64,000 bases of DNA from a virus. The stretch is taken from the IMG/VR virus record IMGVR_UViG_3300023184_003735, positions 60,184 through 124,183 of that record; one strand, written 5' to 3'. Made by a program: the position numbers and the translations under genes. Below, in pieces: positions 25,646-33,672 of the stretch. Every line of letters begins with the position of its first letter. The first letter of the stretch is position 1. The notes beneath the pieces were generated by a model. It did not search any database, was not told the DNA's origin, and saw nothing but the letters and a program-made list of their open reading frames with translations.

Positions 25646-26116
25646 TTACGCTGCCAAACTCTTGAATCTATCTGCGGCGTAACTGGCTGCAAATGCTTGG
25701 GGTTTGACAAAAGGTATCACATTACATGTACCTTTGATGTATCCAATGGCTTGTGAAATTACACAACTTGATCCGTGCATTTCGTTGGGATTGATGTCCA
25801 GGTGAACCTCAACTTCTCGCCCTTCTAGTACCTCTGCCAGTTTAAGGTACAATTCGCTCACTTTGTATACTTCGGTCATCAAACGTAAACTAGGGCGACT
25901 GGCCTTCTGGTCCCAGTCGCGTTCACGTTGTACTTCGCCAAACAGTTTGCAACCGTTGTTGCCATTGATATGGACCACAATAGCCAGCACATAATCGGCA
26001 TGCCAGGCACCTTCTACTTTGACACGTTCACTATCGCAACCAAGATAGATTTTTGTTTCAGGTGTTTGGGCCCGGATAAATTCTGCCACTTGGTCAATGT
26101 CTAGTTTTTTCATCAT
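25646..26116 (-). CDS. RNase H-like YkuK/DUF458 family protein
   Basis: IYLGCDS, RLMTEV, EVHLDIN, KPQAFAASYAAD. Confidence 0.8.
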   Translation of the reverse strand: MMKKLDIDQVAEFIRAQTPETKIYLGCDSERVKVEGAWHADYVLAIVVHINGNNGCKLFGEVQRERDWDQKASRPSLRLMTEVYKVSELYLKLAEVLEGREVEVHLDINPNEMHGSSCVISQAIGYIKGTCNVIPFVKPQAFAASYAADRFKSLAA

Positions 26117-26156
26117 TTGCCTTTTATTTAACTCTATAAACATTACGGTTTTATTA

Positions 26157-26233
26157 TGGTGCCCCAAGAGAGACTCGAACTCTCAAAATTTGGCTTTTAA
26201 GACCAACACGTATACCAATTCCGTCATCGGGGC
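26157..26233 (-). tRNA. tRNA-Leu(TAA), short variable loop
   Basis: TTGGT-CT TAA AA-GCCAA; CCA. Confidence 0.87.
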
Positions 26234-26644: not shown

Positions 26645-26669
26645 TAGGGGCACAGAGAATCGAACTCTA
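26642..26669 (-). pseudogene. tRNA 3' remnant (T-arm + acceptor strand + CCA)
   Basis: TAGAGTTCGATTCTCTGTGCCCCTACCA with no matching 5' half; overlaps HNH stop. Confidence 0.75.
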
Positions 26670-27248
26670 CTTCTCTAACAATCTTTTTGCTCTGGAATAG
26701 TTGTTACCCTTTGCCGCAATTCCTGCTTTGAGCAAACCTTGTCTTATACTACTGGTTTCTTTAAGACATTGTAGTAAAAATTCATCGGTTACTACATTTA
26801 CGCCGTTTTTAGAAGGTTTGTTTCGTCCCCTCCATGTATCAGTGATACTATGGCAGTTTGGGCACAGTCCTTCTAAATTTTCTCTAGTATTGTTTTGATT
26901 GTTGCCATCTTTGTGCTCAAGTTCAAGTGGAATTTTGAACCCCTGCCACTCACTTACGCCACATTTATTACAGCAATGATTTTGTTCTTCAAATACTCTG
27001 CGTCGTCTGTTTTCCATACCTAATTCAGAAAATGGAGTAGCATTATATTTGTCTAGCCACGCCTGTTTGATATTTGCTCTCCATTGATCTACATCAGAGA
27101 TAAGTCCACGTGTACTAGGCTTTCCCTTTAATGCAATACTTTTTTTACGTTTACTTTCATCGGAAAACTCCCGACTATTAGCACATGTTCTAGAACAAAA
27201 TGTTCCAGATTTGCTATGTTCTGTTTTACACTTAGGACATTGTTTCAT
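26667..27248 (-). mobile_element. HNH homing endonuclease in the tRNA array
   Basis: N-terminal CPKC/FCSRTC zinc finger; CNKC...LELEHKDGNNQNNTRENLEGLCPNCH. Confidence 0.88.
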
Positions 27249-27308
27249 ATCGAACCCTATTAAATTATAGAAGTATTTAGTAGAGTTCCATATAAAACAA
27301 CTCATAAA

Positions 27309-29131: not shown

Positions 29132-29160
29132 ATTATATAGTCAACGTGTGACCATGTCAA
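29132..29160 (-). promoter_or_regulatory. Consensus sigma70 promoter TTGACA-N17-TATAAT inside tRNA array
   Basis: Perfect boxes, just upstream of tRNA-Ser(GCT). Confidence 0.8.
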
Positions 29161-29168
29161 CAACAATT

Positions 29169-29253
29169 TGGTGGAGATGACTTGAGTCGAACAAGTAGTG
29201 CCAGGGGCGGCTGATTTACAGTCAGCTGGGGTTACCAATTTTCCTACATCTCC
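29169..29253 (-). tRNA. tRNA-Tyr(GTA)
   Basis: GCTGA-CT GTA AA-TCAGC; variable arm; ACCA. Confidence 0.9.
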
Positions 29254-29257
29254 AATT

Positions 29258-29332
29258 TGGTGGACCGTCCCGGGTTCGAACCGGGGACTGAGGCTTGCAA
29301 AGCCACTGTGTTCCCAACTATACCAACAGCCC
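29258..29332 (-). tRNA. tRNA-Ala(TGC)
   Basis: G3:U70, TT TGC AA loop. Confidence 0.9.
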
Positions 29333-29339
29333 AAATTTT

Positions 29340-29416
29340 TGGCGACCCCGAAAGGATTTGAACCTCTGACATTTGGTTTTGGAGACCAACGTTCTGCCGG
29401 ACTGAACTACGGAGCC
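29340..29416 (-). tRNA. tRNA-Trp(CCA)
   Basis: TTGGT-CT CCA AA-ACCAA; GCCA. Confidence 0.9.
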
Positions 29417-29437
29417 ATAACGCACTCTTGCGAATGC

Positions 29438-29520
29438 GTGTATCGAAGCACACCAAGGTCACAAACCCCGACCGTTCATGGCCGCACGAACCTTTTCGGT
29501 ACTGGTATGCTTCGATACAC
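29438..29520 (-). ncRNA. Long-stem multibranch RNA cassette
   Basis: 18-bp helix GTGTATCGAAGCATACCA/TGGTGTGCTTCGATACAC enclosing three small hairpins. Confidence 0.55.
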
Positions 29521-29610
29521 TCGGATTTTTTTATGTACAAGAACATAAGCCATCCCCGAGGCCGCCCATTTGCAGTTTTGAGTGTTGCAGGCTCGCGTTG
29601 CCTTGCACTA

Positions 29611-29645
29611 AATGAAAAACCCTGGAGTTTTAATTCCAGGGTCCT
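29611..29645 (-). terminator. Attenuator terminator 1 (CCCTGGA/TCCAGGG + TTTTTCATTT)
   Basis: GC hairpin + U-tract; its 5' arm can alternatively pair with the end of the leader ORF. Confidence 0.75.
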
Positions 29646-29671
29646 TGGTGTGAATACGGTTGTATACTATG

Positions 29672-29785
29672 TTAGGACCCTGTGTCTCCTGGAATGCTTG
29701 CTGTCAAGCGACCATAGACATGTGACCAGGCGGATGTCTGATTAAACATTGTCTTGGGTAGCGATAAACAGAGTTGCGTTTTCAT
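29672..29785 (-). CDS. Putative leaderless leader peptide 1 (37 aa, MKTQLCLSLPKTMFNQTSAWSHVYGRLTASIPGDTGS)
   Basis: ATG 7 nt after TATAAT; ends in antiterminator strand. Confidence 0.6.
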   Translation of the reverse strand: MKTQLCLSLPKTMFNQTSAWSHVYGRLTASIPGDTGS

Positions 29786-29792
29786 AGTATCA

Positions 29793-29821
29793 ATTATAGT
29801 TTATTTATCATCTCGTGTCAA
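29793..29821 (-). promoter_or_regulatory. sigma70 promoter TTGACA-N17-TATAAT with ATAAATA in the spacer
   Basis: Perfect boxes and spacing. Confidence 0.8.
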
Positions 29822-29865
29822 CCACGACATGCTCTTTCTGTGTTATTTATACAACACAGTTGAAT

Positions 29866-29939
29866 TGGATGCGGGTGACAGATTCGAACTGCCGATGCAC
29901 CTGGCTTATGAGACCGGTGTGGTGGCCACCCTACCCGCG
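29866..29939 (-). tRNA. tRNA(CAT), initiator-like (C1:A72) with shortened D-arm
   Basis: CGCGGGT/ACCCGCA acceptor, CT CAT AA loop, TTCGAAT T-loop. Confidence 0.72.
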
Positions 29940-29980
29940 ATAATATTATTTATAAATTATAAAACAAATAAAATTATTTG

Positions 29981-30835
29981 TCAACCAGGATACAAATTTT
30001 CTTCACTGTCAAATTTGTAGTCGTCTGGCAATACCACCTTGGTTGAGTGGTCAATCAACTCGGCTAACTGGGCGGTGGGTACTCCGGTGACTCTAATTTG
30101 TCTTCTCCTAGAGGTGCAAATTGGAACACCATGCAAAAAATAATCACTATGCAAGTATACCGGATCGTTTGTGGTAAACACTTTTTTGTTGTCATCTCCA
30201 TCCAGTGCCCACCATAGCGGAACACCGCCATCACTGATGTTTAATGCAACGATCACATGACCTTGCTGATATAATCCATTTTCGGCACCAGCATTTTTAG
30301 CGAAAGGCAAACCAGCATCAGCAGAATATCTTGCATCACGATGTATGTTACTGAAACTTCCTGGTGCCAAACTCACACAGTGTATGTTCACAATTCGTTT
30401 AAATGGCAATTGCTTCAAAATAAATTCTACAATTTTTAAATGTTTAAATTCGGGTTTTATTTTATAAAGTCTGTTCAAATGATGATTGCGCATGCAAGAC
30501 CCACCTTCTCCAGCATTACGTTTTACAAAATCGCTATCTGATTCAATAGTGATAAGTTCTAGCAGTTGATTCATTTCAAAGCCAGAAATCCCACGAATTT
30601 CTTCAGTGTATTGTCCAGAATTACCAATTTCTATCGACACGTTCATTTTATCATACAAGATTGGATCTATCATTCCCCATGCCCGATTGAGATTACGAGT
30701 ACCATCTAAAGTTTGCCGGCGTGTACATATAGAGTGCGAAGTTGGTAAAATATATTGGTCATACTCTTCGACAAAGAGTTTGTGGTCAAAGTCGAGATTG
30801 AGTTTTGCGTAAGCAAGATTTGCAAATTGGTGCAT
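29981..30835 (-). CDS. Hypothetical protein, possible 2OG-Fe(II) oxygenase/cupin fold
   Basis: HRD...LHGV...RRQIR pattern. Confidence 0.55.
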   Translation of the reverse strand: MHQFANLAYAKLNLDFDHKLFVEEYDQYILPTSHSICTRRQTLDGTRNLNRAWGMIDPILYDKMNVSIEIGNSGQYTEEIRGISGFEMNQLLELITIESDSDFVKRNAGEGGSCMRNHHLNRLYKIKPEFKHLKIVEFILKQLPFKRIVNIHCVSLAPGSFSNIHRDARYSADAGLPFAKNAGAENGLYQQGHVIVALNISDGGVPLWWALDGDDNKKVFTTNDPVYLHSDYFLHGVPICTSRRRQIRVTGVPTAQLAELIDHSTKVVLPDDYKFDSEENLYPG

Positions 30836-30912
30836 GTTTTTAGTAGTAGATATTTTGAAATCCAACAAGTGGAGTTTCTATTGAAAGTACTATATTTAGT
30901 TCAATTGATAAT

Positions 30913-32364
30913 TCATTGATCATGTTTTTCTAATTCGGGCACAAAATCTTTAAGTTTTACTCCACGACTATTATCAAGTACACGATTAAATTCAAAAAAT
31001 TTTTTTAAACTTTCAGTATCGGGTAGTGAATTTTTTACTTGAATTTCAATTCTATCAATTGTGGTTTTAAAATACTGATCTTGCTGATATCTCTTTAGTT
31101 GTTTGATCAACTGTAAATTGTCAAGAATTGTTTGTGGCTCGGGATGATTCCAAGGCGATTGATCAGGTTCTACGCCAGCAACAAGATTCATGGAACAATG
31201 AACTTTTAAATATTTGTCATCTAAGAAATTATAAAGATCAAACAGGTGTGCAATATTATAGATACTGATCACAGTATTGAAGTTTGCAACACGACCCATA
31301 TCATAAAGTGTAGCAACATTGCGACACCAGTTGTCCCATTTGATAGGCCATCTAATGTAGCGATTTAATTGATCAAATCCGTCTACACTCACACTAAATT
31401 CTAGATTAGGAAATTTGTTACAGTAGTCTAACATCTGAGTTGATAAGACTGATGCATTGGTGCTGACTTCAAATGCAATATCATTGCGTTGCTTTTCAAT
31501 GCATTGGTCAAGGAATTGAAAAAATTCCTTGTTTATAGTGGGCTCTCCTCCGGCTATTTGTAGACATCGCACATGGTCAATGTCAACGTGATCAAAAATA
31601 CCTTGTTTTTTGTGATTAGTATAGTTTGATAGACCAATTGCTCTATATTCTCTAGCAATGAGATGCGAATTGCCAGGAACACACATTCGACACATTGCAT
31701 TACAACGATTGTCTAATACCGCATATACATACAATGGTGAAGGTACAGTTGTTACATCTTGTTGCGTTTTAATATTAAACTTGCTACTCCAAGTTTGAGT
31801 AAAATTTTGTCTTTGACTGGTCATTCCTAGATCTTCTTTTTGCCAACAATGACTGCATTCATCAACACGTTTTCCCTGCAACATACTCTGTTTTACGGAC
31901 TGGCTCCATGATGCATCAAATTTATCAGATGGTCTTGATTGCATGTGACAGCAATGACTTTTTTGCTTTTGTGTTTGGTATAGCCCAACGAATGGTACAA
32001 TGCAAAAGGCTGGATTAGTATGTAATTCTTTTAGAATCCATGGTACCAAGTCGGGATTTTGATATTCCACTACAAAAGATTTTTGTAAGTCAAATATCAT
32101 GCTGATTGTTATTGCAAAATCTTCAGCATTATTGTAAGATTCTTGATCTTGATCTAACAATATAATTTTGCATGATTTACCATACAACAGGGTCTGCAAC
32201 TCAGCCGGTGTTATATCGTATATACTGGTATGATAGACACCAGAAGATAAGTTTGTATTTCGATCCAATACTAATTTATATTCAAGATCGTGTTGTTGTG
32301 CAATTTTTTGTGTAATTTTGTGTGCTATTTTATTGCCTGTGCCCACACATACAATTAGATTCAT
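30913..32364 (-). CDS. Radical SAM protein with N-terminal twitch/SPASM-like domain
   Basis: FCIVPF..HCC..CSHCW, CNAMCRMC, GGEPT, STNAS, SVDG..YIRW. Confidence 0.87.
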   Translation of the reverse strand: MNLIVCVGTGNKIAHKITQKIAQQHDLEYKLVLDRNTNLSSGVYHTSIYDITPAELQTLLYGKSCKIILLDQDQESYNNAEDFAITISMIFDLQKSFVVEYQNPDLVPWILKELHTNPAFCIVPFVGLYQTQKQKSHCCHMQSRPSDKFDASWSQSVKQSMLQGKRVDECSHCWQKEDLGMTSQRQNFTQTWSSKFNIKTQQDVTTVPSPLYVYAVLDNRCNAMCRMCVPGNSHLIAREYRAIGLSNYTNHKKQGIFDHVDIDHVRCLQIAGGEPTINKEFFQFLDQCIEKQRNDIAFEVSTNASVLSTQMLDYCNKFPNLEFSVSVDGFDQLNRYIRWPIKWDNWCRNVATLYDMGRVANFNTVISIYNIAHLFDLYNFLDDKYLKVHCSMNLVAGVEPDQSPWNHPEPQTILDNLQLIKQLKRYQQDQYFKTTIDRIEIQVKNSLPDTESLKKFFEFNRVLDNSRGVKLKDFVPELEKHDQ

Positions 32365-32374
32365 TATAAATTTT

Positions 32375-32766
32375 GCTCGGTTAAATGCTCTGACATCCCT
32401 CGGCGGTAATTATAGAGCATTGAGTGATAGTCTTTCCACTACACACCGCAACTTGTACTCCTTCCACCCGCTTCCCGACAGGGACCGTTCTCGTATTGCT
32501 AACGCCGGTTAGGTTAGACCGCATCTTTCGATGTGAGACTTATATTCCAAATCTCAGAACCACCCGTGCTTGTCACAGCACTTCTCATCGTCTGGGTCAG
32601 ACTATCCAGTGACGCTGGAACGTTAGGGAAGGGCTGGCCCCATAACGGGATACCACTTAGCCTTACTTATCTGTCGCGTTGGAGTAAGGCACCCTAATTA
32701 GGAGAGAAGCCACGGTTGCAGGACCTAGTGCCTTTTGCAAGGGAAGTATCCAGGCGGTGTGGCTTC
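32375..32766 (-). ncRNA. Candidate large structured ncRNA downstream of tRNA-Asp
   Basis: GC-rich, no credible ORF, several helices and a likely 3' pseudoknot. Confidence 0.5.
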
Positions 32767-32773
32767 AAAAACT

Positions 32774-32848
32774 TGGCGGTCCGAACGGGAATCGAACCCG
32801 TCTCCTCGCAGTGACAGTGCGAAATACTAACCGATATACTATCGAACC
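32774..32848 (-). tRNA. tRNA-Asp(GTC)
   Basis: TCGCA-CT GTC AC-TGCGA; GCCA. Confidence 0.92.
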
Positions 32849-32850
32849 AA

Positions 32851-33006
32851 ATGTTATAGTCAAGCACCGAGAATGCCAATTTATGCGTCCTCCGCTAAGA
32901 GTGCAAAAGCCGAATGCAGTTATATTAGGATCAGTCGCCGGCCGCTGTGACCCGAATAGTGTTGGCGTCCCATACACGATACCTTATCGATGCTTGACTA
33001 TAACAT
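32851..33006 (-). ncRNA. Long-stem RNA cassette
   Basis: ATGTTATAGTCAAGCATCGA/TCGGTGCTTGACTATAACAT 20-bp helix around ~115 nt. Confidence 0.55.
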
Positions 33007-33007
33007 T

Positions 33008-33132
33008 TACCATATAGAAGCACTCTCGCCAGCAGGCCTAGGAGGGGACTTGCACCACTGAAACTTTCGCATCTGCAGATACTAGGCTTCTTCTCCTGCT
33101 TTGACTTATGCCAAGAATACTTCTATATGGTA
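33008..33132 (-). ncRNA. Long-stem RNA cassette beginning at tRNA-Glu CCA
   Basis: TACCATATAGAAGTATTCTTG/CGAGAGTGCTTCTATATGGTA helix with G-U pairs. Confidence 0.55.
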
Positions 33133-33203
33133 CTCCGTGGGGGAATCGAACCCCTCCTTACCCGCGTGAAAGGCGAGTGTCCTAACCGATAGACGAACGG
33201 AGC
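33128..33203 (-). tRNA. tRNA-Glu(TTC)
   Basis: CTCGC-CT TTC AC-GCGGG; ACCA. Confidence 0.92.
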
Positions 33204-33502: not shown

Positions 33503-33508
33503 GCACTA

Positions 33509-33541
33509 AATGAAAAACCCTCCAAATTGGAGGGCCTTTAG
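33509..33541 (-). terminator. Attenuator terminator 2 (CCCTCCA/TGGAGGG + TTTTTCATTT)
   Basis: Same architecture and tail as terminator 1. Confidence 0.75.
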
Positions 33542-33559
33542 TGATGTAGTACAAAATAC

Positions 33560-33637
33560 TTACATCCAAAGACCCTGCAGGCAATCGCGCTCGTGTTCTG
33601 AACGGAAAGTGTTAGCGATTGCGTTTATTGTCATCAT
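33560..33637 (-). CDS. Putative leaderless leader peptide 2 (25 aa, MMTINAIANTFRSEHERDCLQGLWM)
   Basis: ATG 6 nt after TACAAT; ends in antiterminator strand. Confidence 0.58.
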   Translation of the reverse strand: MMTINAIANTFRSEHERDCLQGLWM

Positions 33638-33643
33638 AGTGTT

Positions 33644-33672
33644 ATTGTATACGATTATTTATACTTTGTCAA
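33644..33672 (-). promoter_or_regulatory. sigma70 promoter TTGACA-N17-TACAAT with TATAAATA in the spacer
   Basis: Boxes and spacing seen directly. Confidence 0.78.

Follow-up and report, generated by a model that had tools for sequence, protein, structure and literature searches.

Candidate ribosome-dependent attenuators preceding tRNA genes in a large phage

A promoter, a short leader and a terminator in front of tRNA genes

We analyzed a window of 64,000 nucleotides (nt), that is, the whole stretch of DNA considered here, from the viral record IMGVR_UViG_3300023184_003735, in which a compact cassette (cassette 1) stands in front of an array of tRNA genes. All features of this cassette and of its paralog described below, together with the neighboring promoters and tRNA genes, lie on the minus strand, and positions are those of the window. 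Cassette 1 opens with a perfect match to the consensus promoter TTGACA-N17-TATAAT (29793-29821), followed 7 bases after the -10 hexamer, with no purine-rich stretch in between, by the ATG (29785) of a leader open reading frame (ORF) of 37 codons plus TAA (MKTQLCLSLPKTMFNQTSAWSHVYGRLTASIPGDTGS, 29672-29785), which comprises 32 distinct codons and 19 amino acids and whose frame is kept in relatives. Five perfect promoters of this kind were found in the window, compared to 0.02 expected. Within the spacer of the cassette 1 promoter (29799-29815), adjoining the -10 hexamer, lies the motif ATAAATAAAC, which is common to most relatives, does not occur in the window's remaining consensus promoters (29984, 29160), and may be a binding site for some factor.

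The end of the leader ORF is complementary to the region of a putative intrinsic terminator. The segment CAGGGTCCT (29674-29682), which runs through the final codons of the ORF into the first base of its stop codon, is an exact 9-base complement of AGGACCCTG (29637-29645), and the two are the presumptive 5’ and 3’ arms of an antiterminator. The 3’ arm has CCCTG in common with the 5’ arm of the 7-bp hairpin CCCTGGA-ATTAAAAC-TCCAGGG (29620-29641; arms 29641-29635 and 29626-29620), such that the two helices are mutually exclusive. Directly after this hairpin comes TTTTTCATTT, with the T-run TTTTT and then CATTT occupying positions 29610-29619; relatives with other tails have runs of 5-9 T. The calculated folding energies are -12.0 kcal/mol for the hairpin alone and -24.6 kcal/mol for the antiterminated form of the 3’ part, which includes a small conserved hairpin in the antiterminator loop. 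For the RNA of 182 nt as a whole, the calculated energy is -48.5 kcal/mol (z = -3.40), a stability not matched by any of 200 shuffled sequences. RNAalifold additionally predicts a hairpin within the ORF, P1 (29686-29730), in which CCTGG (29730-29726), containing a Trp codon, pairs with CCAGG (29692-29688), that is, the Pro-Gly codons, around an inner helix TCA/TGA. The first-pass annotation of this DNA had picked out the promoter, the ORF with its codon count, the 9-base pairing and the hairpin with its T-run, all of which are present.

Between the hairpin and tRNA-Trp lies a conserved, structured spacer RNA of about 190 nt (29417-29609), followed by tRNA-Trp, tRNA-Ala and tRNA-Tyr (29169-29416, ARAGORN), the only tRNAs located between the switch and the next promoter. 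The spacer RNA consists of a hairpin H1 (AGUG..GGC-AACGCGA-GCC..CACU), a GGGCGGCC block, a long stem whose interior varies and a GNRA hairpin, and contains a helix that covaries between relatives (CUCGG/CCGAG, CUGUA/UACAG, CCGGA/UCCGG). In a search of positions 29417-29830 against Rfam 15, no non-tRNA family, T-box included, was detected at E ≤ 1. Altogether, 22 tRNAs lie downstream of cassette 1, 20 predicted by ARAGORN and 2 by Rfam (Lys-UUU and Thr-GGU, read by eye), with only Glu and Asp lacking, in agreement with the first-pass annotation. That annotation placed the whole array under control of the leader, with the caveat that an internal promoter could bypass it. The caveat proved real: a consensus promoter after tRNA-Tyr (29132-29160), found also in the closest relatives, would restart transcription for the rest of the array, leaving only the spacer RNA and the three tRNAs strictly behind the switch, and control of the whole array is therefore not upheld.

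A family of cassettes linked to tRNA genes

The window contains a paralogous cassette of a different type (cassette 2, type B; 33503-33672). Downstream of its promoter TTGACA-N17-TACAAT (33644-33672), with 6 nt separating the -10 hexamer from the ATG, lies a leader ORF of 25 codons plus TAA (MMTINAIANTFRSEHERDCLQGLWM, 33560-33637). In the switch region (33513-33576), AGGGTCTTT (33576-33568) pairs with AAAGGCCCT (33539-33531), and the hairpin CCCTCCA-ATT-TGGAGGG (33534-33518) is followed by a T-run (33517-33513). Cassette 2 is followed by its own spacer of about 300 nt and then by tRNA-Glu (33203-33128) and tRNA-Asp (32848-32774), the two tRNAs together spanning 32774-33203. The Glu and Asp codons of the cassette 2 leader (SE.E.D) are kept in 6 relatives.

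Both cassettes end in an identical 18-base tail, and this motif was used to retrieve the family. It matched 16 viral loci and 112 metagenome stretches, yielding 131 matches in all, 105 of them distinct. In 92 matches (72 unique), a promoter is present, the ATG comes 6-10 nt downstream of its -10 hexamer, and the ORF comprises 25-44 codons and terminates 39-53 nt ahead of the tail. Among the 25 further distinct matches, about 12 appear to be chance hits in unrelated DNA, and the other 13 form a separate group, type D (L009, L022, L030, L051, L063, L077, L083, L087, L091, L108, L119, L123 and L130), with the same switch and downstream RNA and an ORF of 41-57 codons whose start lies about 50 nt downstream of the -10 hexamer and is preceded by purine-rich stretches. 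Type D cassettes precede varied tRNAs (Glu, Asp, Val, Tyr, Met). The peptides of types A (to which cassette 1 belongs), B and C are unrelated in sequence and have a common architecture. Thus, the layout of promoter, mini-ORF, antiterminator and terminator is conserved among relatives, as the first-pass annotation anticipated. Its proposal that the mRNA is probably leaderless and lacks a Shine-Dalgarno sequence fits cassette 1, where no purine-rich stretch precedes the ATG, but such a start is not universal, given the start position of the 13 type D ORFs.

Searching from the ORF side recovered members with altered tails, in which a run of 5-9 T is kept and CAT is not always kept. Where enough downstream DNA is available, these members precede tRNA-Trp/Ala (4/4); two contigs end too soon. 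In two type A loci, L157 and L162, the spacer RNA after the hairpin is replaced by different DNA, with tRNA-Ala at +480 in L157 and an ATG with a purine-rich stretch after the hairpin in L162, shortly before the end of that contig. An exact 31-mer of the switch had no matches in viral contigs.

We examined 66 distinct members with at least 700 nt of downstream sequence for tRNAs on the same strand. The first such tRNA begins no more than 450 nt away in 59 of them and no more than 1600 nt away in 64, whereas none of 9 chance-like hits has one. The first downstream tRNAs are Trp/Ala after type A and Glu after type B.

Two mutually exclusive helices covary

We examined the covariation of both helices across 80 distinct 113-nt sequences of all types. 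In the antiterminator, 88.8% of the cells are paired, and 58 cells carry double changes, compared to 23.1 (standard deviation (sd) 4.0) in shuffles that ignore relatedness among the sequences, a count reached by none of 500; in controls in which the arms were slid against each other, at most 61.5% of the cells were paired. In the terminator, 97.0% are paired, with 67 double-change cells compared to 16.3 (sd 3.3), again reached by none of 500 shuffles. The column common to both helices changes together with both of its partners (A-T-A in 27 sequences, G-C-G in 17, G-T-A in 14), a three-way covariation as expected of two helices that are both functional and exclude each other. Both the slid controls and the range of pair types speak for a real covariation signal in these alignments, and the covarying stems that the first-pass annotation suggested looking for are found for the antiterminator and the terminator alike.

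Hairpin P1 behaves differently in its two parts: the outer helix CCUGG:CCAGG is 99.7% paired, with one-sided changes that only introduce wobble pairs, whereas the inner helix covaries and is 71.9% paired. P1 is possibly a pause hairpin.

The reading frame is kept and the peptide appears to matter little

Several features of the family point to translation of the leader. The ORF is present in all 72 unique promoter-bearing cassettes (a set selected by a filter requiring an ORF) and in all 13 type D members; independently of the filter, every family member with upstream sequence has an ORF. In 80/80 sequences, the ORF reads through the 5’ arm of the antiterminator, and the first base of the stop codon falls 0-21 nt after the last base of that arm; translation must therefore pass through the 5’ arm and never reaches the 3’ arm. 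In the long variants, this arm is itself extended. Within the shared part of the ORF in the type A alignment, the gap runs are 3, 3, 6, 3, 3 and 3 nt (6/6 in frame) plus one compensated 2+1; after the stop, 3 of 15 gap runs are multiples of three. The other two frames are open in 0/72 and 20/72 cassettes. The reading frame evidently matters.

The peptide sequence itself probably matters little. The first-pass annotation expected poor peptide conservation, and this is not what we found: the peptide is well conserved within each type. This conservation, however, is mostly at the nucleotide level, where it is high (ATT 60/60, TGG 60/60, GGG 59/60). Many leader codons are fixed even at their third positions, and the invariance of the Trp and Ile-Pro-Gly codons is explained by an RNA helix, CCUGG:CCAGG, formed by the Trp and Pro-Gly codons; the residue before Trp varies (A, T, V, F), with wobble keeping the P1 pairing. 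In TnaC, translation arrest involves a characteristic spacing of Trp and Pro. We rejected such a nascent-peptide arrest motif for the leader because P1 explains the Trp and Pro-Gly codons, and types A and D align codon for codon with different residues.

A putative attenuator that responds to translation

The reading that we favor, on balance, is that the cassette is a ribosome-dependent (leader-peptide) transcription attenuator gating tRNA genes. A strong sigma-70-type promoter would start an RNA whose first bases are the AUG of the 37-codon ORF. As long as the end of the ORF is free of ribosomes, the last codons would pair with the 5’ flank and the 5’ arm of the terminator, forming the antiterminator, and transcription would continue into the spacer RNA and tRNA-Trp, tRNA-Ala and tRNA-Tyr. 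A ribosome keeping pace with RNA polymerase as far as the end of the ORF would melt or cover the antiterminator arm, such that the hairpin and U-run could form and transcription would stop. Slow or failed decoding of the leader would thus raise the output of the tRNA genes behind the switch, and the signal would be translation capacity, or decoding progress in general, as opposed to the supply of one amino acid.

The comparison among relatives shows the two exclusive helices, the retained frame, the placement of the stop codon and the association with tRNA genes; translation of the ORF, termination at the hairpin, the direction of the switch and the signal sensed are points that we infer. Several observations weigh against this reading. 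The protein-level signal is weak, with a ratio of nonsynonymous to synonymous polymorphism (pN/pS) of 0.62 in frame vs 0.88 and 0.78 in the shifted frames and with entropies of 0.73, 0.72 and 0.82 at the three codon positions. The leader contains no tandem or enriched codons for any one amino acid. The leaderless start is a prediction from sequence, probably correct, and the missing Shine-Dalgarno sequence is not distinctive, because a 4-base core within 20 nt upstream of the first ATG was found for only 27 of 89 long ORFs across the whole record, under a crude choice of starts. The ORF filter used to assemble the 72 cassettes and the disregard of relatedness in the shuffle controls, both mentioned above, also count here. 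A consensus terminator scan did not list the terminator hairpin, and two motif hits (L049, L129) have more than 1.2 kb of downstream sequence and no tRNA. Finally, a further perfect consensus promoter upstream (TTGACA-N17-TATAAT, 29956-29984), unmentioned in the first-pass annotation, serves a tRNA-Met (CAT) gene just upstream of cassette 1 (29866-29939; predicted by ARAGORN and not found in Rfam at E ≤ 1), an arrangement also present in L007, L008, L010 and L014. Transcripts from this promoter would read into cassette 1, carry the ORF internally and probably default to read-through.

Assembly data bear on termination in neither direction. RNA-library contigs of relatives from two studies (X19, X18) both stop at the final T of the T-run (29615), and one X1 DNA contig spans 29555-29788; these contig ends count neither way because another X1 DNA contig breaks 5 nt away (29610), and the assembly graph is likely to break at the 18-mer that the cassettes share. 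The RNA-library contigs cover the tRNA and non-coding parts and not the protein genes at 29951-32447, which may merely reflect conservation among relatives.

If the switch works as proposed, giant phages would tune their tRNA supply to the decoding performance of the ribosomes, which is relevant to the question of why phage genomes include large sets of tRNAs and to how phages withstand host shut-off or defenses that target tRNAs. Such a switch would also explain the islands of promoters and terminators inside phage tRNA arrays and could be used in reporters as a compact, naturally occurring gauge of translation speed. Moreover, the finding flags the conserved 190-nt RNA for study.

Alternative explanations

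A more specific version of attenuation, which we consider doubtful, would make each leader type a cognate gauge of the tRNAs directly behind it: the speed at which their own codons are decoded would autoregulate these tRNA genes, exactly those tRNAs removed by defenses such as anticodon nucleases would be restored by the phage, and the terminated RNA might act in trans. This possibility is suggested by type B, in which Glu and Asp codons precede tRNA-Glu/Asp, by the invariant Trp codon of types A, C and D, and by the tRNA-Trp/Ala genes that come first after type A. The only clear contrast in composition is that residues of the Glu/Asp type make up 3.0% of type A leaders and 13.5% of type B leaders. 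When leader residues were compared with the first three downstream tRNAs, the match was 0.156 for type A and 0.135 for type B, and type B leaders matched type A tRNA sets almost equally well (0.122). With about four independent leader types, the weak match between leader residues and tRNAs is a lead and not a result.

Alternatively, termination itself could yield the product, an RNA of about 170 nt that is small and stable and may have a dual function, with the ORF being secondary. The strong promoter and the terminator of its own, the high conservation at the nucleotide level and the stable fold described above would all suit such an RNA, and its 5’ AUGAAAA can pair with the tail UUUUCAU. Small stable RNAs are also encoded in the tRNA cluster of phage T4. 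The pairing between the 5’ end and the tail was rejected as a conserved feature because relatives with other tails lose CAU, and a single stable fold needs no two exclusive, covarying helices. The kept frame, the in-frame indels and the placement of the stop call for translation. We therefore regard a small RNA as the sole function of the cassette as unlikely, while noting that it is compatible with an attenuator and not exclusive of one; attenuator RNAs can act in trans, as reported for rnTrpL and peTrpL (PMC7968998, 10.1101/606483).

The first-pass annotation itself proposed that the leader is selected to sample nearly all codons or tRNA species, such that the whole 22-tRNA array would be turned on once any host tRNA is depleted or cleaved. 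Comparing the 32 distinct codons in 37 with gene windows, much as it suggested, and also with shuffles gave a divided answer. The window leader is rare among windows of phage genes (mean 25.3, sd 2.4, P = 0.0012), but only marginally unusual among shuffles of its own bases (28.1, sd 1.9, P = 0.043). The same division holds across the family: compared with length-matched gene windows, the median percentile is 0.92, and 70/72 leaders lie above the median, whereas against shuffles of each leader's own bases the median percentiles are 0.59 for type A and 0.45 for type B, so that selection to keep codon diversity is not borne out. Synonymous diversity given the peptide remains somewhat elevated (P = 0.027 for the window leader; family mean z +1.0). 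With a G+C content of 48% in the leaders compared to 43% in the genome, the diversity is mostly explained by balanced composition and a lack of codon bias. The absence of Glu from the cassette 1 leader does not hold up as a matter of design, because other type A leaders have GAA or GAG right after Pro-Gly. The difference in Glu/Asp-type residues between types A and B fits codon sampling as it fits a cognate gauge; against sampling stand the nearly equal fit of type B leaders to type A tRNA sets, the explanation of the invariant Trp codon by the P1 helix, the small statistical weight that four or so leader types can carry, and the promoter at 29160, which bypasses the switch for 19 of the 22 tRNAs. 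Selection for codon sampling thus also appears unlikely.

The cassette could further be an ordinary micro-protein gene of 25-50 amino acids with a leaky terminator, in which the peptide is the product and the pairing is a structure of the 3’ untranslated region. An ORF in all family members, the conservation of the peptide within each type, and the purine-rich stretches before the ATG in the 5’ untranslated region of type D would be expected of such a gene. However, types A, B and C encode peptides without sequence relationship to one another, pN/pS differs little between frames, the residues before Trp vary while wobble keeps the pairing, and the 37-residue product has no match among Pfam or PHROG profiles. 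A micro-protein gene would also leave unexplained why the stop always falls just past the arm that competes with the terminator, and we consider it very unlikely.

Least probable of all is a factor-dependent switch without translation, in which a protein, tRNA or ligand stabilizes one helix (as in riboswitches, T-boxes or PyrR/TRAP-type control): the presence of two exclusive helices, the small hairpin conserved within the loop of the antiterminator, and the conserved promoter spacer and tail would be in keeping with it, but no Rfam family, T-box included, was found at E ≤ 1 in the region searched, no binding-site repeats were seen, and the kept frame and stop placement would be unexplained.

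Source of the DNA and surrounding genes

The record from which the window derives is 124 kb long and, according to CheckV, 36% complete; its source is therefore a much larger phage. The runs that hold at least half of the sampled words (3 runs from 2 studies, one of which may be where the record comes from) are labeled as lake water or freshwater metagenomes. PHROG matches and a tblastn search with the DUF458/RNase H-like protein led only to distant phages of varied Proteobacteria and one cyanophage, and DNA matches among cultured phages were at the level of tRNAs only. A neighboring 295-aa protein led to one distant locus, L003, which lacks the cassette. In this distant relative, a 77-codon ORF has its ATG 5 nt downstream of a perfect TTGACA-N17-TATAAT promoter (L003:7736-8003, plus strand), and leaderless starts may be common in the phage group that includes L003 and the window.

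Protein genes in or between the tRNA blocks encode a 483-aa radical S-adenosylmethionine (SAM) protein (30913-32364, minus strand), an HNH endonuclease and the DUF458/RNase H-like protein (26667-27305 and 25646-26167, both on the minus strand). That the leader encodes a precursor of a ribosomally synthesized and post-translationally modified peptide (RiPP) for the nearby radical SAM enzyme appears unlikely; the cassette tracks tRNA genes and not that gene.

Comparison with known systems

Our literature searches turned up no report of attenuation controlling tRNA genes, whether phage or cellular, and the cassettes are best placed by comparison with systems that have some of their parts. The tRNA cluster of phage T4 encodes small stable RNAs, species 1 and 2, and the 190-nt spacer RNA (29417-29609) is likewise a non-tRNA structured RNA among phage tRNA genes; we know of no leader ORF or terminator switch for the T4 species.

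The closest architectural parallel is with the attenuators of amino-acid operons, such as the trpL, hisL, pheL, thrL and ilv leaders, for which the untranslated default, in the case of trp, is termination. As in those operons, a short ORF precedes an intrinsic terminator, an antiterminator excludes the terminator, and the 5’ arm of the antiterminator would be masked once a ribosome has reached the end of the ORF; the hairpin within the ORF could act as the 1:2 pause hairpin does. The phage cassette differs in lacking the run of cognate codons that defines the class, in having tRNA genes and a structured RNA behind it instead of biosynthetic enzymes, in its probably leaderless start, and in residing in a phage. 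Furthermore, unlike trp, the untranslated default of the phage switch appears to be read-through. The pheL leader-peptide attenuator is described in PMC3082878.

Other systems share the kind of signal. In the control of Bacillus subtilis yxjB, of msrD and of MexXY, leader-peptide attenuators are reported to respond to general ribosome stalling by inducing antibiotic-resistance genes (PMC6851288, PMC10314930, PMC13041342). There, as proposed for the phage switch, impaired translation is sensed via a leader ORF coupled to transcription attenuation. In those systems, however, the stalled ribosomes are bound by a drug, often together with a specific nascent peptide, whereas the phage switch would operate without a drug and has tRNA as its output.

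In Sinorhizobium, the terminated attenuator RNA rnTrpL and the leader peptide peTrpL can reportedly have functions of their own (PMC7968998, 10.1101/606483), and the conserved phage RNA of about 170 nt could similarly have its own function.

With respect to output, the nearest counterpart is the trn operon of Anabaena PCC 7120, a tRNA array that is reported to be induced by translational stress via the repressor TrcR (PMC8421152, PMC10272220). As would hold for the phage cassettes, impaired translation turns on an array of supernumerary tRNAs. The Anabaena operon resides on a bacterial megaplasmid and is controlled by TrcR at the promoter, whereas the phage switch would act after initiation, through a leader ORF and two mutually exclusive helices in the nascent RNA.

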